Shown here piece by piece: positions 207 to 32,646 of a stretch of 34,547 nt of DNA; the stretch's first letter is position 1, and each line of letters begins with the position of its first letter. The position numbers and the translations under genes were made by a program. This stretch comes from Christensenella sp. UBA7868. GTDB taxonomy: Bacteria > Bacillota > Clostridia > Christensenellales > UBA1242. Location: assembly GCA_002501285.1 (NCBI GenBank), contig DLSG01000110.1:1-34547 (forward strand), read 5' to 3'. The notes under the pieces are model-generated. The model was not told the DNA's origin and searched no databases. It saw only the letters and a list, made by a program, of their open reading frames with translations.

Positions 207-261
207 TATAATAAAATAAAGATCCAATGGGATTATCATTTCTTATTAATATTTTATATAT

Positions 262-293
262 AAAAAAACCTAAACTTTCGTTTAGGTTTTTTT
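262..293. terminator. Bidirectional Rho-independent terminator, ending the giant minus-strand gene
   Basis: A7 (262-268), stem CCTAAAC (269-275), loop TTTC, stem GTTTAGG (280-286), T7 (287-293). It lies 64 nt downstream of the stop at 357. Confidence 0.8.
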
Positions 294-356
294 AAAGTGT
301 TTTAGTAATCAACTATATGATTTTTAAGTAAATCTATACTCAATTATTAAGTAAAT

Positions 357-3300
357 TTATGCCCCTGTAAATGAGCCAGTGCCCGCATTTGTATAGAAAG
401 TACCATAAATCAAATCATACATACCCAACACTCCTGAACTATTTTTAGCTGGTACAAGATCTCTCACTAGATTCGTTCCATTCCAAATTTTGAAGTAATA
501 CATGGTTAATGCACCACACTTTCCTTGTCCTTTAAATATCTTAAATGTTCCTGAAGAAGTATTTCCACTATCATCAGATGCAGCAATCGAAGACCTTGTA
601 GATCCGCTAATAACAAGCATTGAGCTATTTGAAGCTGATACAATATAAGTTCCTGAAGTTGAGAATGAAGTGTACATATGGCATTTAGATGCTTGTGGAA
701 CCCATCTTAACTGTGTAGCAGTAGCAAGCCTTGTTAAAGTTCCAATCCAACCATCTGTTCCACAAACAGCGCCGGAATTAATACTAGATGTATAATTAGC
801 AAATTTTACTTCAATTTTTAATGAAGTACTCCAACTTAATCCTGTATTAATATATTGAGTTCCTGTAGATTTTAAATAATTCAATTTAGTATATCCAGTT
901 GGAAGTGCTTGACCTTGAAGTGGATGGAAAGTACTATCATAAACATTCCATAGTCCTTTTGTTCCCGTAGTGTTATTAACAACTGGAATAAAGAAATCTG
1001 TTCCTACACTACATAAATAAATTTTTCCTCGGAAACCATTTGAAGTATCTGCTACTCCATTATAATTTAGTGCCCCTATATATAATGTCTCAAAGCTTGC
1101 AATCCAGCTGGCAGTAGAAGAATGTGTAGCACCATTACTATCAAAATAATACCTTTTAGAAGATGTGATACCTACTGTGTGGATTTGTGAACTATCTCCA
1201 TAATTCATTGTATTTATAGTTCCACCCATATTAGCCTTTACAGTTGATGTCCCAGTAGATGATTTATTTAAATTATTGTGATACATAATAAATTGTCGTT
1301 GCGAAGGACTATTTTGAGACCCGAAAAGAATCATATCATGCGTTGTGTCTGTAAATGAATTTACAACTGAAACATTCGTTGTGTTGTTAAACATATAATA
1401 ATAACTTGCTTTGGCTCCGGTATCTACATACTCACTTCCTGTAAATTCAAGATAATCTAGAATTCTATAACTTGATGAGCCCCTGTAAAGAGTTTTTCCT
1501 GCATAAGTTGATGTCATTGAAGAAATTGATGTTGCTGAGCCAGCATATTGAGAGAAATATTTAGTAGTTGAACCATTTGATGTTGGTAACGCTATTGCTT
1601 TGCCAATAGATTTAGGTGCTTTAATAGAACTTAAAACAAAATGGTTATTGCTATTATTAATAGAAAGCATATCAGTAACATTAGCAGAACTTAAAATTTC
1701 AAATCTCGATAAGTCTAAACTAGCCAAACTATAGCAATCTTTAAACATTTGAGTAAAGTTTGTTACTAGACCAGTGGTAAATGAAGAACCGAATGTAATT
1801 TTTAACAAACTATAACATTCTCCGAACATATAAGACATATTTGTTGTTACATTTGTATTAAAAGCTGATAAATCTATAACCCTTATATCATTACAAGCAT
1901 AGAACATGTTAGACAAATTTGTTGCTTTTGTACAAACAAAATTTGAACCAGTTGTTAAAACCTTTAAGCTTGTACATGTATCAAACATGCTAGCCATTGT
2001 TGTTACACTTGCTGTATTCCAGCCTTCAAGATCCAAACTTGTTAACTTATAGCAATTTGCAAACATATTGCTCATGTCTGTCACATTGGCTGTTTCAAAA
2101 TCAACAATACTCAATAAAGAAGTAAGGCTTGAGCAACCAGCGAACATTCCAGCCATTTCAGTTACTGCTGAAGTGTCGAAACTAAAAACATTAACATCTG
2201 CAAGGCTAGAACAATTTTGGAACATATAGCGCATGTTTGTAACCTTCGCAGTGTCAAAGTTTGATAAGTTAAGATTGGCTAGCTTTGAACAACCGCGGAA
2301 CATATAACGCATTTCCGTAACATTTGATGTATTAAAACTTGAAAGCCTTACCGCAGTTAGGCTCGAACAGCCGTCAAACATAGCTTGCATATCTGTTACA
2401 TTTGATGTGTCGAATTTAATCAAATCCAACCTAGTTAATGCTTTACAATTTGCAAACATATTGCTCATTGTTGTAACTTTTCCTGTGTTAAAGTTAGAAA
2501 CAGTAAGTGTTGGTAATTTTTCGCAACTATAGAACATTGCATACATTGTCGTTACATTTGCTGTATTAAAACTGGTTAGGTTTAGAGAAGTTAAGTTAAC
2601 ACAACTATGGAACATACCATGCATTTCTTTAACACTTGTTGTGTTAAATTTTGATAAATCAAGTGAACTTAAACTAGAACAATTTCTAAACATAAAACTC
2701 ATGCCTTCTACTTTGCTTGTATCAAAATTGTAAAAGGTGATTGATGTTAAGCCACTTAAACCATCAAACAATTCGTTAGAGTTTACTGGTCCATAAATTT
2801 TATCTGCAACAAATGCAATTTCAGTTATTCTGCTTACTGCATTGTTTTGATAAACTTTAATTCCGCTTGTTAATTTCCCAGCATATTTATATGTTGAAGG
2901 AAGAGAAGAAGGTGTCTCAAATATAATTGATGTAATTTTATTTACTGCTGTTATTTCTGGCATCTTTAACGCAACAACTTGTGTTTTCCAATTTGTATCT
3001 AGTGATGCTGTTAAAGTTAGAACCAAAGTCTTTCCTGCCACAGAACTTTTAAATTCCGTAACAACAGTATTTGTATCTTTAATATACCAAGTTTTATCTG
3101 CTGGAAGAGGAATTGAAACTCCGCTTGCAATAGTTGTTGGTGCTATAATAGTTTTTAATGAACTGCAACCATCAAGGAAGCCTGTTCCTATTGCTCCCGA
3201 TTTAATGTTGAAGCATGTAAAGTCTATTTCATTCACACTAGCGCATCCAGCAAACATATTGCTAAAATCGGTTACATTTGAAGTTGAGAACGCCCCTGAT

Positions 3301-6300
3301 GACCCAAAAGACATATAACTTCCCGAACCACTCCTACTAAACATTCCTTTCATGCTTGTAGCACTAGAAGTGGAAATTTGACTTAGCGATCCATTAAAAC
3401 ATGAAACTCGTGTTCCAGCAAAGAAATAATCAAAAATCTTTGTTTGTGAAGTAAATAAAACTTGATGGTCTCCAGAAGTGTAAAAAGCAATTTCTCCCAA
3501 ATTTGCGAATAAACCAGTTGAATCTATTGGTGTGATAATTTCTGGATAAGACAACCAAATTGACAATTCTCCTTCGCTATTTTCGCCATGCTCAACCAAA
3601 ATCCCGCTTTTTAACTTAATAGCATTATAAGCCATATTGGCATTTATTGAATCAGGTGATGCAATCATTAAATAAGTAGAATTTGTTACAGTTACTCCCG
3701 CATTTTCTAATTGACTTCTCCAATCAGAGTCTAATGTAGCTCTTAGAATATAAGCTAAAACTTCTGTGCATTTATAGCCATATGCATAAGTATTACTACT
3801 TAAAGTTGTTACAACCGAATCAAAGAAGCCGCCTTGATACCAAGTTTTTCCTGTTGGAAGTGTTATTGGATAACTTGATTGAATGTTTTGTGGAATAACG
3901 ATTCTTGTTAAAGCCGTACAACCAGAAAACATATCACTAACACTTGTTACTTTTGTCATATCAAAAGAAGATAAATCTAATTCTTCTAGACTAGGACAAT
4001 CAATAAACATCTGTTGCATAACAATAACATTTGAAGTATTGAAACTTGAAAGATTTACTGTTTTTAAAGCCGTACAATGAGCAAACATAAATTGCATATC
4101 TGTTGCTTTTGAAGTGTCAAAACTTGAAAGGTCTAGGCTTGTTATGCCGCTAACACGCCAGAACATTGCTCTAAAATCTTCAACATTTGATGTGTTAAAA
4201 TTTGAAACATTTAGGGTTGATAACAAAACACAGCCATCAAACATACTATGCATATTAATTACTTTTGAAGTGTCAAAGTTTGAAACATTTAGGGTCGATA
4301 ATTTATTACAAGCTTCAAACATTTGTTCCATTGTTGTTACATTTGATGTGTTAAAACTTGAAATAACTAGCGATGCTAAAACTCTACAGTTATAGAACAT
4401 TTTAGCCATGGTTGTTACTTTTGGAGTTTTAAAATTTGAAAGATTTAAACTTGTTAATGCATTACAATTAGCAAACATACTCTGCATAGATGTTACATTT
4501 GATGTGTCAAAACTTGAGACATTGATTGTTGTTAAACTACTGCAACCGTCAAACATTTCACGCATGCTTGTTACTTTTGCCGTGTTAAAACTTGATAAAT
4601 CCAATGATTGTAAGCTTGAACAGTTTTGGAACATTGCCTGCATTGTTGTTGCTTTGCTTGTATCAAAGTTTTTGAATGTTAATGTTTTTAAAGCGGTTAA
4701 GCCTTTAAACAAGCTAGATGAAGTTGCTGGCGCATAGATTTTTTCACAAACAAACGCAATGTCTAAATCGCTTGAAGAACTTTTGTAAACTTGAATTCCG
4801 CTTGTTAAAATTTTATTAGTGTTCGTATAACCTGATGGAATTTCAGTTGGTTTTAAGAATTGAATTGAATTGATTTTTGTAACATCAGTTATTCCAATTC
4901 CTAGGTTTACAATTTTTGTTTGCCAATCAATGTCTAAAGTTGCTTCCAAAACATGGTCTAAAATAACTTTTCCAAGAACTGTTGAATCATTTGTAATTGA
5001 TGTTTTTTTGTTAGCATTATTTCCTTCAACATACCAGTTTTTCCCTGTCGGAAGAGAAATAAAAGCGCCCGAGCTTAAAGCACTTGGTGCCGTAATTTTA
5101 GTTAACGCCGTTGCCCCAGAAAGCATACTTGCAACTTTTGATGCCGCAGACATATTTAAACCACTTAAATCAAGTTCGGTTAAACTAGCACAACTACTAA
5201 ACATAGTTAAGAAATTTGTTGCAGAACTTGAACAAGAAACTTTAACGCTTGACAGTTTACTGCAACCATTAAACATCCAAGACAAATTTGTTGCTTTAGG
5301 TAAAGAAATTGCAGGCAATGAGGTTAAACTTGAGCAATTCATAAACATATAAGAAACATCTGTTACAAGCGAGAAATCCCACCCAGAAATATCAATTGAA
5401 GCAAGTTTATAACAAAAACTAAACATACTTGTCATTTTTGTTACTTTGCTTGTGTTAAACCCCGAAACATCAACACTTGAAAGGTTTTCACAACCTCTGA
5501 ACATATAACTCATATCAGTTACTTTGCTTGTGTCAAAGTTTGTTTTGTTTAGTTTTATAGTGGTTAAGTTTTCACACCCATAAAACATATAATTCATATT
5601 TGTTACATTTGATGTGTTAAATTTAGTTAAATCTAAAGTTGTCAACTTTGAGCAATTATAGAACATACCACTCATACTTGTTACTTTTGAAGTGTCAAAA
5701 CTTGAAACATTTAAACTTGTAAGTTTTGTACAACTTTCAAACATATAACTCATACTTGTTACTTTTGATGTGTTAAAACTTGAAACATTTAAACTTGTTA
5801 AACTAGAACAGTCAGAAAACATACAATCCATAGCTGTTACTTTTGAAGTGTTGAAACTTGTTAAGTTTAAAGAAGTAACACTAGAATATGCAAACATTTG
5901 TTCCATAGTTGTTACATTTGATGTGTCAAAACTTGATAAATCTAAATCGCCCACCAATTGAACACCATAGAACATATAACTCATATCTGTTACTTTTGAA
6001 GTGTTAAAATTGTTTAAACCCGTAATGTCAGTTAAACTACCACGACAATTTTCATTTTCATCAGCGTCAATATAATCGCAATAAAACATACTGCTCATAT
6101 TTGTTACATTAGATGTGTCAAAGTTTTCAAACTCTATCCAGCCTAACTGCTCTAAAATTCCATTATCTGGTGCAAACAAATAAGAACAATCTGTTGGGGC
6201 AATAATTTTTCCATAAACAAAGGAGATGTCGTATTGACTACCATCTAATATATAAATTCTAATTCCTGTTGAAAATTCTTTTCCTGTGTCAAAGTAGGTA

Positions 6301-9300
6301 AAACCATTTTCATTTTCATAATTAGCAAGTGTTTCTGGTGTATCAAATCTGATTGAGGTTATTTCATTGTTTGTCATAGGAGAAACTGTGCCAAAATTTT
6401 CAAGTTCAAATTCTGTTGTAAATAAACTATCAAATTCAGCAAGCCAAGCCATATCATGTGCAGTTGGGAACAACGCCCCTTCAAGGACATGGTCGATAAC
6501 TGTTACTTTTGTTGAAGCGGTGCTTGCAAACACACTTGTTAAAGTAGCGTTTGGAACAAGTGAGAAGCCGTTTTTATACCATGTTTTTCCGTTTGGAAAG
6601 CTCTCTTCCCCCATTTCTAAACAACCAGGAAGATAAATTGGATAATCATCTTTTATCCCTTGTGGAGTTACAATTTCAGATAGTTTTGCACATTCATAGA
6701 ACATATCTGTCGCATCCTCAACTACCGAGACCATATTGAAACTCGATAAATCAAGATATGTTAGTTTAGAACAATAAGCAAACATTCGCCCCACAGCTGT
6801 TACAAGTGAAGTACTAAAACCAAGTTTTAATGTTGTTAAATTTTCACAACCTCTGAACATCTCTGTCATATCAGTTACTTTGCTTGTATCAAAATGAGAT
6901 AAATCTAATGTTTGTAATGCTCTGCACCCATAAAACATGTTAGCCATATTATTAACTAATGATGTGTTAAAACTTGATAAATTAATAGTTGTAAGCCCAG
7001 AACCATCTTGGAACATATATTCCATTTTAGTTACTTTTGCAGTATTAAAACTTGTTAAATCTAGACTCGTCACTTTTTTAAGTCCTAGAAACATTGCTCT
7101 CATTGATGTAACATTTGCAGTATTAAAGTTTAATACATTAAGAGATGTTAAATTGCTACAGCCTTGGAACATATTTGCCATAGTTGTAACATTACTTGTG
7201 TTAAAACTTGAAACATTAATACTTGTTAAAGATGAACTGTTATAAAACATTTGTTGCATATTAATAACTTTGCTTGTATCAAAACAAGATAAATCTAACA
7301 CTTTAAGGCTACCAGTATGCCCTTCAAACATATGACTCATTGTTGTAACATTTGATGTGTCGAAATTTTTAAACACAAGAGTTGCAAGATTTGTAAGCGT
7401 TACGCCATTTGTGTAAGCGAACAATGAACTACAATTTGCTGGTGCTTTAATACTTCCCGCAACAAACGCAATGTATGTTGATTTAGAATCACTAACCCAA
7501 ATTTCAATTCCGCTTGGAAGTGTTTTTCCTGAATTTGAATAACTAACTGAATTAATTGTTAATTTTTTAGTTGACGAATTGAAACTTGCATAATCGTCAA
7601 ACGCAATTCCTGTTATGTTAGAAGCCGTTGTAATTCCAGTAAGTCCAAGGCTTGCAATTTGAGTTCTCCAAGAAGTTGAAAACTCAACAGGTTTTATATA
7701 ATCGTAAATAGTAATTTTAGCCGAAACGGTTGAACTTAACCCTTTTGTTAATTCAACAACTTTTGCAATTCCTTCTTTATACATGTGTTTATCTGTACTA
7801 TCTGCTTTTTTAGTTGGAAGTGCAATTTTATAACTATCACTAATATTTTTTGGAGTAACCAAAACAGATAAGTCTGTCATGTTATTAAGCATATTTGTAA
7901 CTTTAGTTACTTTTGTCATATCAAAACTTGACAAGTCTAAATTTGTTAGTTTTACGCAGTTTTGGAACATTCCACTCATATCAGTTGTGCTTGATGTGTT
8001 GAATGGAATAGTTAAATTTTTAAGAGCGATACAACCATCAAACATATAACTCATGTCTGTTGCTTTGCTTGTATCAAAATGTGAAAGATCTAATGTGTTA
8101 AGTTTTTGACAATCATAGAACATTCCGTTCATATCAGTAACTAAACTTGTATTAAAACTTGAAATATTTACATTTACAAGACTACTACATCTTGTAAACA
8201 TATTTCTCATTGTTGTAACCTTGCTTGTGTTAAAACTTGATAAGTCTAAATTCGTTAGGCTCCTACAACTATCAAACATATAACTCATATTTGTTACATT
8301 GCTTGTGTCCCAACCTGAAAGGTTAATACTTTGAAGATTTGAACAACTTAGGAAAAGCCCATATAAACTTCCAGCATTGCTTGTATTAAATCTTGATAAA
8401 TCCAAAGTTTTTAAAGATGTACAGTTATAGAACATTTGATTTAAACTTGTAACACTTGTAAACTCAGGTAGATTTAAAGTAGTTAATGAACTGCAACCAT
8501 AAAACATTAAATAAGTTGCTCTTGCTTTTGGTACATTCCAGCCAGATAAATCTAATGTTGTCAATTTTGAAGCACCACAGAACATATCTCCTAAATTTTC
8601 AGCAATTGAAGTGTCAAAATTATTAAAGACTAATGAATTTAAGTTTGTAAGAGGAATAGCATTTGTTCCGTCACCTGTGCCATCTGCTCTAAACATTCTG
8701 TAACAACTTGCTGCTGTTTTAATTGTTCCATAAACAAACGCAATGTTTGTTGGGTTACTTGTGCTTTGATAAACTCTAATTCCGCTTGCAAGTTTCTTTC
8801 CAGTGTTTTTATATTCGCTTGGGACTGTTGTTGGATTATCAAACCTTATTCCTGTAATTTCGCTTGCTGATGAAATTCCAGTTAATGAAAGTCCAGCAAT
8901 CTCCCCTCTCCATGTTATTGGGAAAGTTGCAACAAAACTAGATTCTGTGTATGTTGCAGTATATTCTTGTTTGCCACTAACCGCCGCAATTGTAGGATTC
9001 CAAGCTTTAAAAGTATATTCAACTTCACTTGTTGCTTCTTTTGTTGCAGTATCCCCAAAACTAGGAGTTACTCCATATTGAGCATGATCAATTTTTAAAA
9101 TTTTTCCATCATCGTTTTTAAAACTAATTAAATAACTTGATTTATCAGTTGATAAGTTTTGCCATTCGCTTTCACCGCCAACTTGACAATAATCAACATA
9201 ATATGTAACAGTAGTTTTTAAATCGGTTTTTAATGCGCCACTTGAATCTCTTAAAACTTCGTCATTGATTTTGTCGGTTACATTAAACGCAAAAGACAAT

Positions 9301-9728
9301 GTTAATTTTGTGCTTTTAAGAGGAGTTAAAGAGTTTGCATTTGTAACTGAATAGTAAAATTTGTTATCTTTTCCTTTGATTGTACTATCCACGCCCACAC
9401 ATTCAACAACATCGTTTTTAACAACCGTATTTCCGCTTGAATCTAGCGTTTGCATCGTAACTTTTGCATAGGTCCTGATATAGACATCTTCTTTTGAAGA
9501 AAGATTAACTGAAATATCTTTAATAAACCAGTTTCCAGCAACCAAATCTTTTGGGTCTAAACTATTATCAACCTGTGCATTTCCGCTTGCTTGGGAAATA
9601 GTTATGTTAATATCTGCTCCTTTTTTATCACTAAACCACGAAAAAGTTAGTGCTGTAATAGAAGCGATTGCAACCATTACTACACCAATCCAACCAAATA
9701 TTTTTAATCTTTTAGTTTTTCCTCTCAT
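357..9728 (-). CDS. Giant 3123-aa surface protein. It has a TasA/camelysin-like N-terminal domain with a SipW-type signal peptide, one Listeria-Bacteroides (Flg_new)-like repeat, six BspA/DUF285-type LRR modules and two C-terminal lectin-like domains.
   Basis: Uninterrupted 9372-nt ORF. SD AAGGGG sits 6 nt upstream of the ATG at 9728. The N-terminus is K/R-rich, followed by a hydrophobic helix and 'TFSWFSD'. About 59 units of 24-25 aa resemble 'LTNLDLSSFNTSKVTTMRNMFTRCSS', which I recall as the DUF285/BspA LRR signature. A terminator lies at 262-293. Confidence 0.9.
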   Translation of the reverse strand: MRGKTKRLKIFGWIGVVMVAIASITALTFSWFSDKKGADINITISQASGNAQVDNSLDPKDLVAGNWFIKDISVNLSSKEDVYIRTYAKVTMQTLDSSGNTVVKNDVVECVGVDSTIKGKDNKFYYSVTNANSLTPLKSTKLTLSFAFNVTDKINDEVLRDSSGALKTDLKTTVTYYVDYCQVGGESEWQNLSTDKSSYLISFKNDDGKILKIDHAQYGVTPSFGDTATKEATSEVEYTFKAWNPTIAAVSGKQEYTATYTESSFVATFPITWRGEIAGLSLTGISSASEITGIRFDNPTTVPSEYKNTGKKLASGIRVYQSTSNPTNIAFVYGTIKTAASCYRMFRADGTGDGTNAIPLTNLNSLVFNNFDTSIAENLGDMFCGASKLTTLDLSGWNVPKARATYLMFYGCSSLTTLNLPEFTSVTSLNQMFYNCTSLKTLDLSRFNTSNAGSLYGLFLSCSNLQSINLSGWDTSNVTNMSYMFDSCRSLTNLDLSSFNTSKVTTMRNMFTRCSSLVNVNISSFNTSLVTDMNGMFYDCQKLNTLDLSHFDTSKATDMSYMFDGCIALKNLTIPFNTSSTTDMSGMFQNCVKLTNLDLSSFDMTKVTKVTNMLNNMTDLSVLVTPKNISDSYKIALPTKKADSTDKHMYKEGIAKVVELTKGLSSTVSAKITIYDYIKPVEFSTSWRTQIASLGLTGITTASNITGIAFDDYASFNSSTKKLTINSVSYSNSGKTLPSGIEIWVSDSKSTYIAFVAGSIKAPANCSSLFAYTNGVTLTNLATLVFKNFDTSNVTTMSHMFEGHTGSLKVLDLSCFDTSKVINMQQMFYNSSSLTSINVSSFNTSNVTTMANMFQGCSNLTSLNVLNFNTANVTSMRAMFLGLKKVTSLDLTSFNTAKVTKMEYMFQDGSGLTTINLSSFNTSLVNNMANMFYGCRALQTLDLSHFDTSKVTDMTEMFRGCENLTTLKLGFSTSLVTAVGRMFAYCSKLTYLDLSSFNMVSVVEDATDMFYECAKLSEIVTPQGIKDDYPIYLPGCLEMGEESFPNGKTWYKNGFSLVPNATLTSVFASTASTKVTVIDHVLEGALFPTAHDMAWLAEFDSLFTTEFELENFGTVSPMTNNEITSIRFDTPETLANYENENGFTYFDTGKEFSTGIRIYILDGSQYDISFVYGKIIAPTDCSYLFAPDNGILEQLGWIEFENFDTSNVTNMSSMFYCDYIDADENENCRGSLTDITGLNNFNTSKVTDMSYMFYGVQLVGDLDLSSFDTSNVTTMEQMFAYSSVTSLNLTSFNTSKVTAMDCMFSDCSSLTSLNVSSFNTSKVTSMSYMFESCTKLTSLNVSSFDTSKVTSMSGMFYNCSKLTTLDLTKFNTSNVTNMNYMFYGCENLTTIKLNKTNFDTSKVTDMSYMFRGCENLSSVDVSGFNTSKVTKMTSMFSFCYKLASIDISGWDFSLVTDVSYMFMNCSSLTSLPAISLPKATNLSWMFNGCSKLSSVKVSCSSSATNFLTMFSSCASLTELDLSGLNMSAASKVASMLSGATALTKITAPSALSSGAFISLPTGKNWYVEGNNANKKTSITNDSTVLGKVILDHVLEATLDIDWQTKIVNLGIGITDVTKINSIQFLKPTEIPSGYTNTNKILTSGIQVYKSSSSDLDIAFVCEKIYAPATSSSLFKGLTALKTLTFKNFDTSKATTMQAMFQNCSSLQSLDLSSFNTAKVTSMREMFDGCSSLTTINVSSFDTSNVTSMQSMFANCNALTSLNLSNFKTPKVTTMAKMFYNCRVLASLVISSFNTSNVTTMEQMFEACNKLSTLNVSNFDTSKVINMHSMFDGCVLLSTLNVSNFNTSNVEDFRAMFWRVSGITSLDLSSFDTSKATDMQFMFAHCTALKTVNLSSFNTSNVIVMQQMFIDCPSLEELDLSSFDMTKVTSVSDMFSGCTALTRIVIPQNIQSSYPITLPTGKTWYQGGFFDSVVTTLSSNTYAYGYKCTEVLAYILRATLDSDWRSQLENAGVTVTNSTYLMIASPDSINANMAYNAIKLKSGILVEHGENSEGELSIWLSYPEIITPIDSTGLFANLGEIAFYTSGDHQVLFTSQTKIFDYFFAGTRVSCFNGSLSQISTSSATSMKGMFSRSGSGSYMSFGSSGAFSTSNVTDFSNMFAGCASVNEIDFTCFNIKSGAIGTGFLDGCSSLKTIIAPTTIASGVSIPLPADKTWYIKDTNTVVTEFKSSVAGKTLVLTLTASLDTNWKTQVVALKMPEITAVNKITSIIFETPSSLPSTYKYAGKLTSGIKVYQNNAVSRITEIAFVADKIYGPVNSNELFDGLSGLTSITFYNFDTSKVEGMSFMFRNCSSLSSLDLSKFNTTSVKEMHGMFHSCVNLTSLNLTSFNTANVTTMYAMFYSCEKLPTLTVSNFNTGKVTTMSNMFANCKALTRLDLIKFDTSNVTDMQAMFDGCSSLTAVRLSSFNTSNVTEMRYMFRGCSKLANLNLSNFDTAKVTNMRYMFQNCSSLADVNVFSFDTSAVTEMAGMFAGCSSLTSLLSIVDFETANVTDMSNMFANCYKLTSLDLEGWNTASVTTMASMFDTCTSLKVLTTGSNFVCTKATNLSNMFYACNDIRVIDLSAFNTNVTTNMSYMFGECYSLLKITFGSSFTTGLVTNFTQMFKDCYSLASLDLSRFEILSSANVTDMLSINNSNNHFVLSSIKAPKSIGKAIALPTSNGSTTKYFSQYAGSATSISSMTSTYAGKTLYRGSSSYRILDYLEFTGSEYVDTGAKASYYYMFNNTTNVSVVNSFTDTTHDMILFGSQNSPSQRQFIMYHNNLNKSSTGTSTVKANMGGTINTMNYGDSSQIHTVGITSSKRYYFDSNGATHSSTASWIASFETLYIGALNYNGVADTSNGFRGKIYLCSVGTDFFIPVVNNTTGTKGLWNVYDSTFHPLQGQALPTGYTKLNYLKSTGTQYINTGLSWSTSLKIEVKFANYTSSINSGAVCGTDGWIGTLTRLATATQLRWVPQASKCHMYTSFSTSGTYIVSASNSSMLVISGSTRSSIAASDDSGNTSSGTFKIFKGQGKCGALTMYYFKIWNGTNLVRDLVPAKNSSGVLGMYDLIYGTFYTNAGTGSFTGA
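360..1472 (-). repeat. Two tandem C-terminal domains of about 185 aa (aa 2753-2940 and 2941-3123), probably lectin/LamG-like jelly rolls
   Basis: Both begin with 'Y(R/T)(I/K)L(D/N)YL(E/K)(F/S)TG(S/T)(E/Q)Y(V/I)(D/N)TG'. Both end with an 'I(Y/F)...(V/I)....L(I/V)P......G(L/M)(W/Y)(N/D)......F(H/Y)' type motif, for example 'LVRDLVPAKNSSGVLGMYDLIYGTFYTNAGTGSFTGA'. Confidence 0.6.
1473..8933 (-). repeat. Six tandem LRR modules inside the giant CDS
   Basis: Approximate module bounds from counting residues: M1 7695-8933, M2 6489-7694, M3 4959-6488, M4 3750-4958, M5 3015-3749 (short, degenerate, about 3 LRRs), M6 1473-3014. Each module opens with a head like 'W(R/K/Q)(T/S)Q(I/V)..L..... I(T/N)(G/S)I.F......SGI.(V/I)(Y/W)....IAFV...I.AP'. 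It then carries 9-14 LRRs and closes with 'L..I..P..I.....I.LPTGK.WY'. Confidence 0.8.
8943..9140 (-). other. Listeria-Bacteroides repeat (Flg_new / InlB B-repeat)-like segment, aa 197-262
   Basis: 'ISFKNDDGKILKIDHAQYGVTPSFGDTATKEATSEVEYTFKAWNPTIAAVSGKQEYTATY' fits the Y.V.F....G......v.yG......P...G..F.GW......v.....YtA.Y pattern. Confidence 0.5.
9144..9728 (-). other. TasA/camelysin-like N-terminal domain of the giant protein (aa 1-195) with a SipW-dependent-type signal peptide motif
   Basis: 'MRGKTKRLKIFGWIGVVMVAIASITALTFSWFSD' resembles the signal-anchor plus (A/T)xAYF(S/T)D motif of the TasA/CalY families. 'AGNWFIKDISVNLSSKEDVYIRTYAKV' resembles the conserved PGD..K...V.N.G..D.Y.R strand pair. 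Confidence 0.55.
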
Positions 9729-9807: not shown

Positions 9808-10476
9808 CTAAATTTCAGTTTGCAAATCATCATAGCCTTGTTGTGAAATAACCGCAGAAATGTTGATGACAAAGTTTTTGCCACAAAGGTCTGTGTCTGC
9901 AATATCTTCTCCGACTTTCACACTATTTATAATGGTAGCCGCATTTGCTCCTTTTGCCGTCAAACCAATTTTAGTATCTGGAAGGACAATACTGCTATTT
10001 TTCTCTACGCTATAAGAACTTGAAACAAGTTGAATATAATAACTATCGTTTCCGCAAGAGTTGTCAATGTTATTTACAACGGTTGTCCCATTTTTAAACA
10101 CAACCGCAAATTGAACATTTGTAACAACAGCGTCAACGTTACCTGCATTTTTTATTTTAATAGGCAAACTAAATGTGCCTGAACTTAATGTTATTGTTTT
10201 AGTGGTAGAGCCACTTTTAACTTGAAGGCTAACCGCCCCACTTGACGAAATCGTTCCAGTAATTCCGTTTTTATCAATTTTGTAATCTGTCGTTCCGTCA
10301 TTATAATAAAATTCTAGCGAAACATAAGGATTGTTTGTTGAATTGTTATTTGAAAAAGTTCCGCTTAAATAAGCATAGGTCACGCCAAAAATTGTGCTAA
10401 TTACGCACAATGCTAAAACCAAAAACATAAAGCTATAATTTCTTTTTCCTATATTTTTATTTTTCGTTTTCAACAT
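9808..10476 (-). CDS. TasA/camelysin-like secreted protein (222 aa) with a SipW-type signal peptide, directly upstream of the giant gene
   Basis: SD GGAG lies 4-5 nt from the ATG. The N-terminus reads 'KRNYSFMFLVLALCVISTIFGVTYAYLSGTFS'. 'LPIKIKNAGNVDAVVTNVQF' is a TasA-like strand motif. Same strand as the giant gene, 79 nt from it. Confidence 0.55.
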   Translation of the reverse strand: MLKTKNKNIGKRNYSFMFLVLALCVISTIFGVTYAYLSGTFSNNNSTNNPYVSLEFYYNDGTTDYKIDKNGITGTISSSGAVSLQVKSGSTTKTITLSSGTFSLPIKIKNAGNVDAVVTNVQFAVVFKNGTTVVNNIDNSCGNDSYYIQLVSSSYSVEKNSSIVLPDTKIGLTAKGANAATIINSVKVGEDIADTDLCGKNFVINISAVISQQGYDDLQTEI

Positions 10477-10714
10477 TTTTCTCCAATTTATTTATATAAT
10501 AAAATATTTTTCAAAAAAAGTCTAGTATTTTTAGTCATTTTCTAACAGAAATCTTAATTTTTTATATAATATATATATTTATTATTTAAAATAAAGCAAG
10601 AAATATTTATAAACTAATCAAATTGTTAATTTTACGCCCAAATTTGCTTAATCTCCACAAATTAACGCTTTAAATATTTTAATTTTAAAGATATTTTAAA
10701 CAAAAAAAATGCCG

Positions 10715-11296
10715 TTAATCAGCATTTTTTGTTATCAAGCAAACTCCATCTTCAAGGTCAATTAATTCGCTTTCAATTTTATCATTATCTTTCACCATTT
10801 TTAAAAACAATCTTAAATTATTTACAATTGTTCGGTGTTTTTTTTCTACTATTCCCTCATTTAAAACAAGCCCGCCAAACAAAACATTATCACAAAAAAT
10901 CATACCACCAACATTTAGCATTTTTAATAAATGTGGTAAATATTTTGGATATTGTCCTTTAGGTCCATCTAAAAATATGAAATCAAATTTCTGATTTTCT
11001 TTTTCAATAAAATCTATTGCATCACCAAAAATAAGTGTTACCCTATCGTTAAAACCTTCTTTTTCAAAGTTTTTTAGTGCAATATTTTTCATATTTTCAT
11101 CTTTTTCCAAAGTGGTTAGTTTCGCACTAGAATTTTCAAGCATTAATATGCCCGAATACCCAATTGCCGTTCCAATTTCTAAAATTTGAGATGGATTAAC
11201 TTCTTTAATTTTTTCAATCAAAAGTTTGCTTGTTTTTGGTCTTACAATCGGAATAAAATTTTCTTTTGCAAACTCTCTTATTTCGTTCTCTTTCAT
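10715..11296 (-). CDS. Class I SAM-dependent O-methyltransferase (family 3, YrrM/TrmR-like)
   Basis: SAM motif I 'ILEIGTAIGYSG', 'FDFIFLDGPKGQY', 193 aa. Its start overlaps the RNase J stop as TAATG at 11294-11298. Confidence 0.75.
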   Translation of the reverse strand: MKENEIREFAKENFIPIVRPKTSKLLIEKIKEVNPSQILEIGTAIGYSGILMLENSSAKLTTLEKDENMKNIALKNFEKEGFNDRVTLIFGDAIDFIEKENQKFDFIFLDGPKGQYPKYLPHLLKMLNVGGMIFCDNVLFGGLVLNEGIVEKKHRTIVNNLRLFLKMVKDNDKIESELIDLEDGVCLITKNAD

Positions 11297-22375: not shown

Positions 22376-22415
22376 AAAAAAGAGCACATTTTAGAAAATA
22401 AAATGTGCTCTTTTT
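22376..22415. terminator. Strong bidirectional terminator closing both the SLOG gene and the phage-like late/lysis operon
   Basis: A5, 12-bp stem AGAGCACATTTT (22381-22392), loop AGAAAAT, stem AAAATGTGCTCT (22400-22411), T-run. Confidence 0.85.
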
Positions 22416-22441
22416 ATTAATTTAATTTTATCTTCAAATTT

Positions 22442-22768
22442 TTAATCCAAATTTTCAGGTAAAACATCTTCTATGCTTTCTTTTTCAGTTTTTGATTCTT
22501 TAGTAGTGTTTTGATCATCTTCCTCTTTTGCTTCATTTTTGTTTTCTTTGGAAAATTCTTCTAAATCTTCTTTTGTTTTAATATCTTTGTCTGTTTTATC
22601 TTTATCAACAACACCAATTGTAACCATAAGTCCAATCAATGCCACCGAAATTGATATTACGGCTTCAATATTCAAATTTATTTTGAAAACATCCATTAAA
22701 ACTTCAAGTAAAACAACAACACTTGCCAAAACGGTCATCAAAAACTTATAATTCAAAAATTTTTTCAT
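22442..22768 (-). CDS. Phage holin, phi LC3/holin_4_1-like (108 aa) with an acidic C-terminal tail
   Basis: Two TM segments 'FLMTVLASVVVLLEVLMDVF' and 'AVISISVALIGLMVTIGVVDKDKT' fit the ...a.l.lL..lGiv.D.t pattern of this holin family. It is the last gene of the operon. Confidence 0.55.
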   Translation of the reverse strand: MKKFLNYKFLMTVLASVVVLLEVLMDVFKINLNIEAVISISVALIGLMVTIGVVDKDKTDKDIKTKEDLEEFSKENKNEAKEEDDQNTTKESKTEKESIEDVLPENLD

Positions 22769-22779
22769 AATTTTATCCT

Positions 22780-23019
22780 TTAAACCACTTTGGTTTTATT
22801 TTTTGCTCTAATTTTAGAATTTTCAATGTCCTCTTTAATTTCTTCAACATTTTTTTCAATATTTTCAACAGCATCTAAATGCCTATTCAAACTTTCAATC
22901 GTCTGAATATATTTTTTTTCACGCTTACTGCTGTCTTTCAATTGAAATATTAAAAGACCTAAAAACAACACCGCAAAAAGTCCATTTTGTATGGCCAAAT
23001 TAACTATTTGTTCCCACAT
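22780..23019 (-). CDS. BhlA/UviB-family holin-like protein (79 aa)
   Basis: 'NGLFAVLFLGLLIFQLKDSSKREKKYIQTIESLNRHL' aligns by eye with B. licheniformis BhlA 'QGPFAVLFCWLLFYVMKTSKERESKLYNQIDSQNEVL'. Confidence 0.7.
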   Translation of the reverse strand: MWEQIVNLAIQNGLFAVLFLGLLIFQLKDSSKREKKYIQTIESLNRHLDAVENIEKNVEEIKEDIENSKIRAKNKTKVV

Positions 23020-23045
23020 AAAACACTCTTTTTAAATATTGTAAG

Positions 23046-23273
23046 TTACAAGTTTAAAGTTTTAATTTTTTTAATATCCAATGTTTCGTATGCTTCTTGT
23101 TTTTCTTTTTCAAGTTTTTCGCTATCTTCTTTTTCCGAAAAATTACATTCAAAACTTTTTAAAATTTTTTCTAAATCGTCTTTCATAAACATTCTCTCTT
23201 TTTCAAAAGTTTTATAAAATTTAATTTCAAGTTCGTTTTTAACTTTTTCTTTACTTATTAAATCCATATTCAA
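23046..23273 (-). CDS. Small acidic coiled-coil protein (75 aa), a possible tail plug/needle or assembly factor
   Basis: K/E-rich heptad-like sequence. Overlaps the end of the 524-aa gene by 23 nt. Its function is inferred from position only. Confidence 0.3.
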   Translation of the reverse strand: MNMDLISKEKVKNELEIKFYKTFEKERMFMKDDLEKILKSFECNFSEKEDSEKLEKEKQEAYETLDIKKIKTLNL

Positions 23274-24825
23274 TTAAATCTATGCTCAATTTCAAATTTG
23301 TGATATACGCCTTATCAATTGTGCTTTTAATTTTTATACCAATTTGTTTGCCCTTTAAGTTTACCCTTATTCGATTTAACGTATCTTTCCCTTTAAGGCT
23401 AAAACTTTTGCTTTCGTTTTCAGTAAAAATAGTAATTTCAGCATCATATTTTGAAAGAATAGTAAAATCTCTAACAAATTTAATTTTATTAGAATATCCA
23501 AGGTCACTTAAAGGAGAAATCCATTCTTTAATAAGTGGTTGGTCAAAAAATTTCCCGTTACTATTAAGTTCCAAAACTCTTTGAGTTTCAACAGAATTTA
23601 AAAGGATTGCAATTTTGTCCATCTTGTTTAATTTTATAGAACACAAACAAGCAATATCAACGCCTCTTAAAATTTCGTATTCATTTGTGCTTGCATTTAA
23701 AATAACCAAAGCATTATTTTTATAACTTGTCTGATTTTCACAACCAATAATGTTGTCATCATCAAAATTAAGTCTGCACGCTAAATAATATTTCCCCGAA
23801 TGAAAAACTGCTTTTGCAAAATCATTATTTTGATTTTTAAGCATTTCGTTTACGCCCAAATTTAAAACCTTACTGGTTACACCATTAAAACTGCAAAGTC
23901 CGTCTTTTGTAAGCATAATCATTTTATCCGAACAAATACAAACTGTGTTTTCATAAATCCTGCTTCCCGACAAACTTAAATGAATAATGTCCAAATTAGA
24001 TTTATTTTCATAGCAAATTATTTTAGTTATTCCATAATCACGAATAGCATAAACATAGTCTAAAAACGAAACAACCTTGTTAATTTTGCCTCTATCGTCA
24101 TTCATCTCAAAAACATTGTTTAAAACATGGGTAATAAACTCCCCAGTTTCTTCGTCAATAATTTCATAAGTTTCAGTGTAACTAGGAAGCCAAGTTGTGA
24201 AATTTGTATCGGCATGATAATACAAAACATTTCTTTCGCCATAACCACTACCGAACAATTTACCCTTGTTTTCACACATACTATTTAGTTGCGGAAAACT
24301 CTCCATTTTTGTTGGATTTCCAAGCCCAGCGAATTTATACATTCCAAGAGTTTCCGATCCAAAAATGGTGTAATCTTTACCATCTTTTTTAATGTTATAA
24401 CTAAAAGTAGGTGGACTGTCGAATGTGTCAGTTACATAATCAAAAATATACGGAAATTCACAAATAATTCTGCTAAAATAAATTCGTTTATCTGCCCCAT
24501 AAAACAATAACTTATCCGTTCTTCCACCATTATCGGCTTCATACATTTTATAAAACCACATAGTTTTAAAGTCCACCCAATCAACATTAGGGGGCTGAAT
24601 CATCGGTGCCAAATCATCATTTACATAATTAGGGCACATTAGATTACTAAAACCATAACCTTCGGTCAAAACGCCTTTTCCATAAGCAAAATTATAAACA
24701 GCAACGCAGTAATTAGGGTCAAGAACATTTTCTTCTTTGTCAAAATTAAGTCCCTTTGAAAAGTCGTTAATTTTAACAACAATTCTTTCGGTTTTAGGTT
24801 TGCTATCACTTTTTTTAACAAACAT
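23251..24825 (-). CDS. Phage structural protein (524 aa), a candidate tail hub/nozzle with a beta-propeller-like sequence
   Basis: I moved the start to the ATG at 24825. SD GAAGGTGG lies 3 nt upstream, and the ATG overlaps the upstream stop as TAATG. The track start at 24879 would add 'MCYAGKKKYCYAKKKVAI' inside the upstream gene. 'INDFSKGLNFDKEENVL' and the repeated G-x-hydrophobic strand pattern are tail-hub-like. The gene sits after the adaptor-size gene. Confidence 0.45.
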   Translation of the reverse strand: MFVKKSDSKPKTERIVVKINDFSKGLNFDKEENVLDPNYCVAVYNFAYGKGVLTEGYGFSNLMCPNYVNDDLAPMIQPPNVDWVDFKTMWFYKMYEADNGGRTDKLLFYGADKRIYFSRIICEFPYIFDYVTDTFDSPPTFSYNIKKDGKDYTIFGSETLGMYKFAGLGNPTKMESFPQLNSMCENKGKLFGSGYGERNVLYYHADTNFTTWLPSYTETYEIIDEETGEFITHVLNNVFEMNDDRGKINKVVSFLDYVYAIRDYGITKIICYENKSNLDIIHLSLSGSRIYENTVCICSDKMIMLTKDGLCSFNGVTSKVLNLGVNEMLKNQNNDFAKAVFHSGKYYLACRLNFDDDNIIGCENQTSYKNNALVILNASTNEYEILRGVDIACLCSIKLNKMDKIAILLNSVETQRVLELNSNGKFFDQPLIKEWISPLSDLGYSNKIKFVRDFTILSKYDAEITIFTENESKSFSLKGKDTLNRIRVNLKGKQIGIKIKSTIDKAYITNLKLSIDLIEYGFNK

Positions 24826-25430
24826 TATAGCCACCTTCTTTTTGGCATAACAATATTTTTTCTTGCCCGCATAGCACATTCTAAACTTTCTTCAAATTTA
24901 GATTTGTAAACTCCACTTTGGTCGTATTCCCCCGAAACATAGCAATATTCTTTATTAAGTCCAAGAGCCAAAACTCTATCCGTCAATTTCCCATTAAAAT
25001 CAGAAACTTCACTATTCAAAGTTGCAAACTCAGGTTTATAGCAATAAACTATTCTATAATTCCCGTCTTTTACATACAAAACATTGTCGTAAATTTCACA
25101 CTTTACTTCAATTCCAAATTTATTTTCAAGCCTGCAAAGTTTATAAAAATCTTTATCTAATTTAGATAAACTAAAACTTCCGCCACTAACTTCAATATTT
25201 TCTACTATTGCCAAAGGAATATAATCAGTTGCAATTTCCTTATAAACAAGATTAAAGCATCTGGTTAAAAGTTCAAGCGTTTTTTCTTCACTCGACTTAA
25301 CTGTCCCTTCGGTTATTTCATTATATTCTTTTTCTATGTCAAAAGTTTCATCATAAATTTTACTTCCGTCCAAAAGTTCATCAAGTCCCAGCATAGTTGA
25401 CGATAATTTCACAATATCTCTAACTTTCAC
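24825..25430 (-). CDS. Phage structural protein (about 201 aa), a candidate head-to-tail adaptor
   Basis: The likely start is the GTG at 25430, preceded by GGAGGA with a 7-nt spacer. The track start, GTG at 25445, is itself part of that SD. In position and size it is analogous to P22 gp4 and T7 gp11. Confidence 0.4.
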   Translation of the reverse strand: MKVRDIVKLSSTMLGLDELLDGSKIYDETFDIEKEYNEITEGTVKSSEEKTLELLTRCFNLVYKEIATDYIPLAIVENIEVSGGSFSLSKLDKDFYKLCRLENKFGIEVKCEIYDNVLYVKDGNYRIVYCYKPEFATLNSEVSDFNGKLTDRVLALGLNKEYCYVSGEYDQSGVYKSKFEESLECAMRARKNIVMPKRRWL

Positions 25431-25431
25431 T

Positions 25432-25698
25432 TTAATTTCCTCCACTTAATTTGTCATTAAATTTATCAATTTCATCAAATATTTCATCAGCGTTTTCAAT
25501 TTTAGTTTTGTTAATTAAATTAATAATCCTGTAATCTAGCGTATCATACGGACACACAAGTTCCAAGGTTAAATTAACTCCTCTTTTAAAATAAATTTCA
25601 AATCTGTGTTTAACAATATTTCTAAAAACTCTGTAACAAGGATTAATTTCTTTAATCTTTCTTACAATATCTAATAAATCGTTTTCAATTTCGTTCAT
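25432..25698 (-). CDS. Small phage protein (88 aa), function unknown
   Basis: SD TGGAG. Lies between the capsid and adaptor-size genes. Confidence 0.5.
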   Translation of the reverse strand: MNEIENDLLDIVRKIKEINPCYRVFRNIVKHRFEIYFKRGVNLTLELVCPYDTLDYRIINLINKTKIENADEIFDEIDKFNDKLSGGN

Positions 25699-25717
25699 TT
25701 TAACTCCATTATTAGTT

Positions 25718-25744
25718 AAGGCTGAAAAATAAAATTTCAGCCTT
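25718..25744 (-). promoter_or_regulatory. 10-bp stem-loop immediately after the major capsid gene, without a U-tract
   Basis: AAGGCTGAAA (25718-25727), loop AATAAAA, TTTCAGCCTT (25735-25744). It lies between the capsid stop at 25768 and the next start at 25698. Confidence 0.6.
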
Positions 25745-25767
25745 CCTAATAAATATTTTAGTGTAAA

Positions 25768-26934
25768 CTATTTAGTAATTCCGCTAATTTTTGCTTGACC
25801 ACAAGGTTTAGAGCAAATTAAATCAGCATATTTAACAAGAGTAGCAGTATAAGCAGGATAACCAGGTTTTTGACGAATTATTTTTCCGCCTTCGTCTTCA
25901 AGCCATCTCCAATCACATAGTTGATGTAGTTCAAAATCTTTTGTAGAAAGCAAATACATAGTTCCATCAGCAACAAATCTATCATTAACAACAGGAATAC
26001 CGTTATAAGAAAGTGCTTTAAATCCTCCTTGTAAATCCATAACATCAATGTTACTTCTGCAAGCAGTTAATAATTTTTGATAAATTCTTCTAACATCGTT
26101 AGAACAAGTAATATAATCAACAACACTTCCGCCAATTTCATCAATATCGTCAATACAATTTTGCATTAAGTCTTCTGTAAGTTTTCCATCCGTTGCAGTT
26201 TTCTTAACAGGGCTCATCCAACTATAATCTGCTTTTGTTACGCCATAAAGAGAAGTGATAGAATCATCAAAAATTGCCCCAAGACCAGTAATTTCTTGAT
26301 TTAAACTATTTTGCATAGCAAGATAATAAGTATCATTTCCCATAGTGATTGAATTAGATTCACTTAAATAAACCTTTTTATTTGCTCTGTCTATTTTTGT
26401 TATTCTTGCAGTTAAACTAGCGGCAGAGTTTCCAGTTTTAAATAGTTGAACCATTTGTCCTTCCATTAAATTTTTAACGCTACCAACTGTAACATTATTT
26501 GCCGCAATTGCACTAACATCAGCAAGTTTACCAGTGCCATCACCAAATAGCATTCTAGAAAAGTTGAAGTTAGATGCTTTAATTAAGCCTTCCATTTCTG
26601 CATTTAATAAATTTACAAAAGCGCCTGCATTGCTTTCACTTGCTCTTATTGCTTTGTCGGAAATTTCAATTACGCCATACAAATTTTTTAAACTTGTAAC
26701 AAATTTAACATAATTGTTTCCCGCACTTTCTGGAAGGGCGCCAGTTTCAGTGCCAGCGCCAACACCACCATTAACACCAAAAGTTGTTAATTTAATAATT
26801 TCTTTGCCCCAAACATCATTGCTTGTTTGTTTAATTCTTGCTAAAAGCGGATTAGCCTTAATATTTAACGCTTCGCTAACAACATCAAGATAGGCATCTT
26901 TTAATGCATTTTGAGCATTATCAATAGTAACCAT
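25768..26934 (-). CDS. Major capsid protein, HK97-fold-like (388 aa)
   Basis: It follows the scaffold gene. Its size and sequence are typical of the Phage_capsid family ('LYGVIEISDKAIRAS', 'GIPVVNDRFV'). SD AAGGAGA. Confidence 0.75.
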   Translation of the reverse strand: MVTIDNAQNALKDAYLDVVSEALNIKANPLLARIKQTSNDVWGKEIIKLTTFGVNGGVGAGTETGALPESAGNNYVKFVTSLKNLYGVIEISDKAIRASESNAGAFVNLLNAEMEGLIKASNFNFSRMLFGDGTGKLADVSAIAANNVTVGSVKNLMEGQMVQLFKTGNSAASLTARITKIDRANKKVYLSESNSITMGNDTYYLAMQNSLNQEITGLGAIFDDSITSLYGVTKADYSWMSPVKKTATDGKLTEDLMQNCIDDIDEIGGSVVDYITCSNDVRRIYQKLLTACRSNIDVMDLQGGFKALSYNGIPVVNDRFVADGTMYLLSTKDFELHQLCDWRWLEDEGGKIIRQKPGYPAYTATLVKYADLICSKPCGQAKISGITK

Positions 26935-26943
26935 AATTTCTCC

Positions 26944-27600
26944 TTATTTTTTCAAAATGTGCATTGCAAATTTTCCCGCCTCGGATAAATCTTTTGGCTT
27001 AAATTTGGGGCTAGAAACAACATTTGTTCCCACCCCGCCAGAAATTAATTGCACATTTTTTCCATTTTTCAAATTTAACAAATAATCTTCAATAATTTTG
27101 TTTTTAATTTTTTCATTGTTATAAACAAACTCGTTCAAAAATTCTTCGTCATTTGCTAATTGTTCTTTGGGCACAAAATTTTGTTTAAGCACCCTAGAGT
27201 ACGCAAGTTCCAAAGCATCATCTTTTTTAGCCAAATCTTCATCAGAAATTAAGATTTCAGCAATTTGTTTAACATAATTTTTGGCATTTTCATTTTGGGC
27301 TAAAAACTCGCCAGTTTTTTTAAGCCAATCTTCTCTTTCATATTGTGGCAGAACAGTTTCAGATTTTTCTTTATCTTCTTCTGTTTTATTGCCTGAAAGT
27401 GCACTCAACTTTTGACACTTTTTAGTAAATTCTTTTTCCAAATTTTCATAAGCCTTCAAAAGTTCTTCTGTGCTTTTAAATTTTGAAGAGCCAGTAAGCG
27501 ATAAATCGTCCGTTTCGTTTTTTTCTAATTTTTCATCAAGCGTTCCTGCTTTAAGGTTGACATTTTCGCTGTCTAGTTGTTCTCCAATGTTTTCTATCAT
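26944..27600 (-). CDS. Phage scaffolding protein (218 aa)
   Basis: Acidic, K/E-rich and helical. Lies between portal and capsid. SD AGGAGA overlaps the portal stop. Confidence 0.65.
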   Translation of the reverse strand: MIENIGEQLDSENVNLKAGTLDEKLEKNETDDLSLTGSSKFKSTEELLKAYENLEKEFTKKCQKLSALSGNKTEEDKEKSETVLPQYEREDWLKKTGEFLAQNENAKNYVKQIAEILISDEDLAKKDDALELAYSRVLKQNFVPKEQLANDEEFLNEFVYNNEKIKNKIIEDYLLNLKNGKNVQLISGGVGTNVVSSPKFKPKDLSEAGKFAMHILKK

Positions 27601-27611
27601 AATAAAATCTC

Positions 27612-29489: not shown

Positions 29490-29497
29490 ATTTTCTC

Positions 29498-31211: not shown

Positions 31212-31312
31212 ATCTTCCCCACAGTTCTTAATGTTAGCCTTAAATTTTTGGCTATAAAAATTAAAATTGTATAAAATTATATTTATCGCAATATTATTAT
31301 TAAGAGGATAAT

Positions 31313-32595: not shown

Positions 32596-32646
32596 AAACC
32601 CTCCTAATAGTGCGATTAAACAGGCATTTTTTTGCCTCACACAACA

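Follow-up and report, generated by a model that had tools for sequence, protein, structure and literature searches.

The window examined here, a 34,547-nt stretch of DNA, is the first 34.5 kb of contig C32 from a metagenome-assembled genome (MAG) of Christensenella sp. UBA7868 (1.08 Mb, 81% complete, about 30% G+C). Near its start, on the minus strand, lies a single giant gene (357..9728) whose open reading frame (ORF) is intact, begins with an ATG preceded by an AAAGGGG ribosome-binding site and encodes a protein of 3123 aa. The product comprises a leader, a small N-terminal domain (the 'handle'), a linker, six modules of leucine-rich repeats (LRRs) and two lectin-like C-terminal domains, and it may be the adhesin-bearing subunit of a fibre or surface assembly of the TasA superfamily.

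The giant gene is the second of a pair. Its upstream neighbour, up222 (9808..10476, minus strand), encodes a 222-aa protein with a related leader (FGVTYAYLSG) and a beta-rich body (..LPIKIKNAGNVD..), and only a 79-nt gap with no terminator separates the two. Terminator-like hairpins flank the pair on both sides. One (10704..10730, minus strand) follows a methyltransferase gene and forms the upstream limit of the unit; the other (261..294), a symmetric hairpin of 15 pairs with an A-tract and a T-tract, lies 63 nt past the stop codon of the giant gene, near the contig end, and is likely a bidirectional terminator of the operon. On sequence grounds, the two genes are predicted to be co-transcribed.

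Repeat modules and lectin-like domains

Conserved heads (W..Q(I/V)..L, ITSI.F, SGI.VY and IAFV) and caps (I.AP..I....I.LPTGK.WY) delimit six modules, all encoded on the minus strand. Module 1 (residues 269-680; 7689..8924) carries 11 repeats between its head and cap, module 2 (681-1084; 6477..7688) nine, and module 3 (1085-1595; 4944..6476) 12-13, closed by the cap LPTGKNWY. Module 4 (1596-1996; 3741..4943) contains 10 repeats and the cap LPTGKTWY, module 5 (1997-2240; 3009..3740) is degenerate, with 2-3 repeats and the cap LPADKTWY, and module 6 (2241-2753; 1470..3008) has 13-14 repeats and the variant cap LPTSNGSTTKYF. The repeats are tandem amphipathic units with variable hydrophilic positions. 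A hidden Markov model (HMM) of the protein's own unit finds 57 of them at i-E<0.01 (11/9/12/10/2/13 in modules 1 to 6), or 59 if two weaker matches are included. The total of about 59 given in the initial annotation therefore stands, while the period is 26 aa (78 nt) rather than the 24-25 aa first proposed. Both curated families for the repeat recognise the protein far above their cut-offs: Pfam DUF285 (PF03382) over 18 stretches (E=2.2e-284, 925 bits, cut-off 25) and NCBIfam TIGR02167, which describes the PARCEL 26-residue repeat, over 50 stretches (1180 bits, cut-off 30). Weaker generic LRR families were also matched by Pfam. Together with the heads and caps, these scores bear out the earlier description of six self-contained DUF285 modules; of the accompanying label 'BspA/DUF285', the second half is retained as DUF285/PARCEL, and the first refers to a related but distinct family, LRR_5.

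The same 26-residue amphipathic LRR-like repeat occurs in the DUF285/PARCEL surface proteins, such as LppQ of Mycoplasma mycoides and the Mbov_0838 family (Roske et al., 2010; PMC2996958). They too are variable proteins exposed at the cell surface, and genomes of about 1 Mb contain many of them (PMC2996958); the window protein has, besides its PF03382 and TIGR02167 matches, a sub-threshold match to NF045896. The literature on DUF285 covers mycoplasma lipoproteins, Lactococcus adhesion, and algal or viral proteins. Most known examples are single-array lipoproteins or membrane proteins, whereas the window protein has six complete head-repeat-cap modules in series, lacks a lipobox and carries its array between a fibre-subunit-like N-domain and lectin domains. 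The closest solved relatives of a module, although distant, are the LRR_5 surface proteins 4FS7 and 4GT6; the structure search retrieved none for DUF285 itself. BspA-like LRR_5 proteins (PF13306), which occur in gut and oral bacteria, are LRR solenoids related to the modules, but they belong to another Pfam family, have another repeat length and usually terminate in Big or Por/LPXTG anchors.

The gene is rich in repeats and lies at one end of a MAG contig, in an assembly that is 81% complete, which invites the suspicion that its six-module length reflects mis-assembled repeats, or that the ORF is a decaying pseudogene fusion. Either is highly improbable. At the DNA level the repeats are 60-80% identical, too diverged for collapse or expansion during assembly, and protein identity between modules is only 43-53% (33-37% for module 5 against the rest). 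The 90% cluster of the protein contains three full-length members, on contigs of 39, 48 and 72 kb from independent assemblies; all are collinear and 3123 aa long, and each of the other two differs from the window's copy by a single residue. The reading frame remains open across 9.4 kb, and a 2733-aa ortholog occupies the same locus in another species. Given the concordant assemblies and the divergence of the repeats, an assembly artefact is rejected, and the six-module structure initially described is taken as real.

The array is followed by two lectin-like domains that are 28.7% identical to each other. A family HMM recognises the first, more diverged copy (residues 2754-2945; 894..1469, minus strand) over residues 2754-2923 (E=1.2e-9), and the second (residues 2946-3123; 360..893, minus strand), which begins YTKLNYLKSTGTQYINTG and ends GMYDLIYGTFYTNAGTGSFTGA, over residues 2945-3121 (E=8.8e-32). 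Searching with the C-terminus by tblastn located paralogous domains on five other contigs. The fold was modelled on the paralogue P0023 and transferred to the 3123-aa protein through these HMM matches. In the AlphaFold2 model of P0023 (46-sequence alignment; pLDDT 81, exceeding 90 through much of the C-domain), the C-domain is a ConA-like jelly roll that matches pentraxin, agrin/laminin LG domains, galectins and sialidase lectin domains, with target-normalised TM-scores of 0.46-0.58 against pentraxin, agrin LG and galectin structures. The lectin domain dominated the fold search with the whole model, which is uninformative on the paralogue's handle.

Among viral models, the P0023 fold is best matched by gut Siphoviridae proteins that are uncharacterised (E=6.6e-12 and 8.2e-11, with a TM-score of 0.74 for the latter); annotated ConA-like/LamG tail proteins match as well. 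At the sequence level, Pfam (searched with the C-terminal 382 aa), NCBIfam and PHROGs returned no match beyond noise for the lectin-like domains. With these fold matches the term 'lectin-like', as used initially, is supported at the level of the fold for both copies, and sugar binding is presumed. The ConA-like/LamG domains of phage tail proteins, as well as galectins, have the same fold as judged from the paralogue model, but the domain of the window protein is cellular and tandemly duplicated, and lacks a PHROG or Pfam sequence match. A direct phage origin was considered and, as PHROGs gave no match, is unsupported by sequence, although the gut siphovirus fold matches exist. A different set of proteins, P0055-P0100, includes many of 200-260 aa that start 'MIDF..(A/V)KS(I/M).IPEGEV' and consist almost wholly of a 'YLESTGTQWIDTG...FYN.GTG.F' ConA-like domain; because the fold matches gut Siphoviridae proteins, proteins of this type may be phage or prophage receptor-binding proteins.

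Leader, handle and candidate signal peptidase

Kyte-Doolittle analysis of the 3123-aa protein detects one hydrophobic segment only (about residues 8-33). It belongs to the leader (residues 1-30; 9639..9728, minus strand), which opens with a basic n-region (MRGKTKRLK), continues with a hydrophobic core of 20 residues and leads to a putative SipW-type cleavage site, T28-F-S30|W31-F-S-D34. The end of the leader reads ...A-L-T-F-S|W-F-S-D-K-K, and the 22-sequence alignment of the handle family (A3) has the consensus T-F-(A/S)|(W/Y)-F-S-D-K-K, in which the Asp is near-invariant. This site aligns, residue for residue, with T-W-A|A-F-N-D, the cleavage site of TasA. A paralogue handle family of the same genome (A2) shares the leader, with an hhalign probability of 96.6% over 40 leader columns between A3 and A2. 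In a six-frame search of the genome, 12 A2 members score on TIGR04088 (12-20 bits), a 34-position model of the SipW signal, and two of them exceed its cut-off of 19 bits; the same model is the best NCBIfam match of a stand-alone handle homologue (14.9 bits). A type IV pilin-like leader was rejected, as the motif G|F-T-L-x-E is absent.

The leader is followed by the handle (residues 31-195; 9144..9638, minus strand), a predicted beta-sandwich after a low-confidence amphipathic strand (DINITIS), and by a linker beta domain of about 70 residues (196-268; 8925..9143, minus strand) with the pattern Y.I.F.N.DG..L...YG..P...Y.F..W.P....V.G...YTA.Y. The linker unit recurs many times in giant surface proteins annotated with PF09479 (Flg_new), so that its relation to Flg_new is by association only: PF09479, suggested initially, finds no match on residues 1-280 at E<=10, and the best Pfam hit for the linker is DUF4367 (E=0.009). 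AlphaFold2 modelling of residues 1-200 on A3 gave a leader helix, a stretch with pLDDT <50 (residues 27-48) and a beta-sandwich (overall pLDDT 76, pTM 0.64). The low-confidence stretch includes a candidate donor strand (residues 37-45, ADINITISQ) whose alternating hydrophobic pattern is conserved in A3.

When the N-domain model was compared with the PDB using Foldseek, the sole match below E=1e-3 was 8AUR, the cryo-EM structure of the TasA fibre (E=2.5e-4, probability 0.99). The next matches were FimG, the PapG pilin domain, CfaB, CS20, archaeal cannulae and the Sulfolobus 0406 thread, all of them donor-strand-complemented filament subunits. The fold evidence for a TasA-like N-domain, as far as the model can be relied upon, is moderate.

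An enzyme that might process such leaders is encoded elsewhere in the genome, in a small operon (C27:12214-13945, locus L015) that comprises a 200-aa protein with N- and C-terminal transmembrane segments followed by two proteins of 182-196 aa with SipW-type-like leaders. Its 200-aa membrane protein is closest to signal peptidases, reaching 36.9 bits with the archaeal-type signal peptidase I model TIGR02228, whose cut-off is 51.85, E=1.7e-4 with the Bacillus SipW family NF046067 and E=0.11 with human SEC11A; in the alignment with the latter, the Ser and His boxes pair with 'NSSAP' and 'VTHQIV'. The operon is also present, at 69% identity, in G066, a complete genome from the same genus (L016:1501-3266), there preceded by a large beta-helix-like protein. 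These matches are suggestive of a diverged archaeal/endoplasmic reticulum (ER)-type, or SipW-like, signal peptidase; as the protein has no Pfam match, the point is suggestive only.

Relatives and the conserved gene pair

The handle family is small. A HMMER scan of 1.84 billion representative sequences with residues 1-200 returned just 22 relatives, of which about nine are stand-alone proteins of 173-200 aa and the others fusions of 258-2330 aa. Fusions with one, two and three DUF285 modules measure 592, 1005 and 1287 aa, respectively, and in the 2330-aa relative DUF285 modules occur alongside Flg_new repeats and the C-terminal lectin domain seen in the window protein. A survey of 301 genomes of the order recovered full-length A3 handles in this genus alone. 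The initial annotation regarded the architecture as undescribed. The literature searched contains no paper that combines SipW, TasA and leucine-rich repeats, although this survey of homologues shows that the architecture is not unique, since relatives carry between one and six modules.

Synteny extends the series. The ortholog P0005 (locus L004), on a contig from a Hadza human-gut metagenome, is 2733 aa long and 56% identical, and lacks lectin domains; its surroundings correspond to those in the window (GluRS, two membrane proteins, RNase J and an O-methyltransferase), including a 222-aa counterpart of up222 (55% identity). In L005, a more distant relative, this locus carries an up222-like gene (201 aa, 32% identity, E=5e-33) and, after it, a gene that encodes the 199-aa handle alone and ends in a stop codon of its own. 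The pair of up222-like gene and bare handle recurs in a second sample and on a third contig, and the pair is conserved in L004, L005 and L007. The second gene of the locus thus encodes, across relatives, either a bare 199-aa N-domain or an N-domain followed by one to six DUF285 modules, which shows that the N-domain is an autonomous handle. The two-gene unit is likewise conserved, its second gene having gained between 0 and about 2900 passenger residues. Three things set the window protein apart: its passenger, at six modules plus two lectin-like domains, is the largest seen; its handle forms a separate family with 22 relatives; and the syntenic series runs from bare to loaded. The novelty lies in the combination of the TasA superfamily with PARCEL adhesins, each of a kind already known.

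The A2 family has expanded within the genome. It numbers 13 copies here (on contigs C16, C71, C69, C70, C49, C34, C33, C50, C7, C30, C27 and C103, the C27 member being 954 aa long) and 16 in a sister genome, with one weak partial match among 58 other genera of the family. The C-terminal heads differ between members, some having between one and four ConA-like domains, some other beta domains and some no head at all; the 954-aa member has four ConA-like domains in tandem. Leaders of this type occur in at least 17 genes of this genome of ~1 Mb once up222 and the C27 pair are counted with the A2 copies. Another giant putative surface protein, encoded by a 5814-aa ORF (C16:6495-23939), has an N-terminal hydrophobic segment of a different kind.

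Modes of surface display

As claimed initially, no conventional anchor is evident. Motif and hydropathy scans of the 3123-aa protein find only the N-terminal segment: an LPXTG motif is absent (there is one internal chance 'LPTSN' only), no lipobox is present, so that a lipoprotein is rejected, and the C-terminus (...FYTNAGTGSFTGA) has no hydrophobic segment. The 81%-complete genome contains no match to sortase (PF04203), and it encodes two penicillin-binding proteins, which indicates that the organism is walled.

It is about an even chance (roughly 0.5) that the gene product is a fibre or surface-assembly subunit of the TasA superfamily and bears the adhesin. The protein would be exported by Sec, and the diverged archaeal/ER-type (SipW-like) signal peptidase encoded in the genome would cleave it after Ser30 (Ser30|Trp31). 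The amphipathic strand released at the N-terminus (A-D-I-N-I-T-I-S) and the beta-sandwich would then, going by the model, engage in donor-strand exchange with the up222 product, with other handle proteins or with both, up222 being a candidate partner subunit of the handle. A 300-kDa binding array would in this way be held, independently of sortase, on a TasA-superfamily fibre or surface polymer, where its LRR modules and lectin-like domains could bind gut glycans or proteins multivalently.

Precedents within the superfamily exist for each of these steps. Donor-strand exchange has been described in TasA (PMC9674648), and the minor partner TapA provides strand complementation (PMC10151520). Within the TasA family, sequences diverge strongly but retain a common fold and assembly by donor strand, and the presence of several paralogues per operon suggests heteropolymers (PMC11580942). 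Tip or adhesin components and minor subunits have been predicted in AbpX/Tafi loci (bioRxiv 10.64898/2026.01.04.697558). The window protein resembles TasA, CalY, BsaA and AbpX (Bacillus tapA-sipW-tasA, Clostridium perfringens sipW-bsaABC; PMC9674648, PMC11580942, bioRxiv 10.64898/2026.01.04.697558) in the aromatic-F-(N/S)-D motif of the leader, in the small beta-sandwich whose top structural match is the TasA fibre, and in that each genome contains several paralogues. A further likeness would be the archaeal-type signal peptidase, here a candidate encoded away from the locus next to its putative small substrates, and attachment would be sortase-independent. It differs in that the known proteins measure about 200-260 aa, whereas the window handle bears a passenger of about 2900 residues; moreover, it has no HMM-level membership of the superfamily, its locus lacks a peptidase gene, and its polymerisation is a prediction. 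The chaperone-usher tip adhesins FimH, PapG and CfaE follow the same logic, a pilin-type sandwich in a donor-strand fibre being joined to a lectin part, and FimG, the PapG pilin domain and CfaB are the next-best fold matches of the handle. However, these adhesins are Gram-negative, depend on a chaperone and an usher, and have an N-terminal lectin domain and a passenger of about 150 aa, while the window protein has an N-terminal handle, a passenger 20 times larger and no chaperone or usher.

Several results weigh against a TasA-type assembly. The camelysin/TasA family PF12389 (Peptidase_M73), to which the N-terminus was initially assigned, finds no match on residues 1-280 even at E<=10, and the 3123-aa protein has no reportable score on TIGR04088, contrary to the SipW signal first proposed; a six-frame genome search with PF12389 yields seven sub-threshold paralogues (best 19.1 bits, cut-off 22.5), and the giant gene is not among them. 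The 22-sequence N-domain profile retrieves nothing from PDB sequences, and none of the A3, A2 and A4 (upstream-protein family) profiles finds TasA or a pilin there. The match to 8AUR is weak (TM 0.26-0.29, rmsd 19 Å), generic Ig-like beta-sandwiches also score, and the model was built on 22 sequences only, although the low TM-scores are partly due to the inclusion of the helix and the floppy strand. By HMM and hhalign, homology between this handle and the A2 handles is detected in the leader only. The family of up222 comprises only four clusters; up222 itself, like the N-terminal 280 aa of the giant protein and two of the paralogues, gives nothing above noise with Pfam and NCBIfam, A4 matches no PDB sequence, and hhalign of A3 against up222 gives a probability of 18%, on the leader only, with no recognisable relation to the handle beyond it. 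The SipW-like gene on C27, in addition to having no Pfam match, is below every curated cut-off and unlinked to the giant-gene locus. The 'TasA-like N-terminus' of the initial annotation is thus partly supported: it fails by PF12389, TIGR04088, PF09479 and PDB-sequence profiles, and gains indirect support from the leader motif, the leader link to A2 and the weak fold match to 8AUR.

The same failure of TIGR04088, and the single 20-residue hydrophobic segment after five basic residues, would also suit a membrane-tethered stalk, in which an uncleaved signal anchor holds the protein and the sandwich and linker serve only to carry the LRR and lectin array across the wall as a spacer, without any polymer. 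Such a tether would account for the lack of another anchor in an assembly without a sortase match, and has a precedent within the superfamily, as BsaA of C. perfringens forms oligomers that behave like proteins anchored in the membrane and not like proteins linked to the wall, so that membrane retention does occur among TasA-like proteins (PMC11580942). The stalk nevertheless appears rather unlikely. The strictly conserved small-x-small|aromatic-F-S-D-K-K after the hydrophobic core is expected of a processing site rather than a mere anchor, the top fold matches are polymerising subunits, and the handle also exists as a free 195-aa protein in the conserved pair, where a spacer would have nothing to space.

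If the leader is instead an ordinary Sec signal cut by the housekeeping peptidase, the protein could be shed as a freely released multivalent agglutinin that cross-links cells, mucus or food particles, its N-domain serving as an extra binding or stabilising domain. The absence of a retention signal of any known kind and the many binding modules, lectin folds included, fit this possibility. On the other side, the aromatic P2' Phe of TasA is reported to block cleavage by LepB-type peptidases, hence the dependence on SipW (PMC10269814), and release would leave unexplained both the conserved pairing with a small upstream gene and the multiplication, specific to this genus, of proteins that share the leader, beside a SipW-like peptidase. 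A shed agglutinin is accordingly regarded as improbable.

An extension of the adhesin-bearing subunit to the whole genus is put forward tentatively, as a possibility that is more doubtful than likely. The genus might build a sortase-independent fibre or mesh from TasA-superfamily handles cut by the SipW-like peptidase, with the handle as a universal plug. The subunit encoded at this locus would then be left bare or have grown module by module to a 3123-aa adhesin, and 13-16 paralogous handles would present lectin or other heads.

Elsewhere in the window, positions 22376-32676 hold a phage-type gene block with a large terminase (29772-31211) and a P22-like portal (27612-29489), both recognised by Pfam, and a probable capsid gene. 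An open-ended 535-aa ORF (32941-34545) encodes a signal peptide and a C-terminal hydrophobic segment and has no Pfam match.

The question addressed by this locus is how uncultured small-genome Clostridia, common in the human gut, attach to mucus, food particles and partner cells. Nearly 1% of the genome's DNA is devoted to the single 3123-aa gene, and more to at least 13 proteins with a similar leader. The conserved pair, with its bare or loaded second gene, is a ready comparative test system. If the N-domain polymerises by strand exchange, it would constitute a simple and portable means of displaying very large binding arrays on Gram-positive cells, would widen the role of the TasA superfamily from scaffolding the matrix to carrying adhesins and would provide a minimal tag of 165 residues for surface or fibre display. 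If, furthermore, the handle is a universal plug, the system would parallel tip-adhesin pili in Gram-positive bacteria, with very large passengers that are interchangeable, and would represent a new route of adhesin display.

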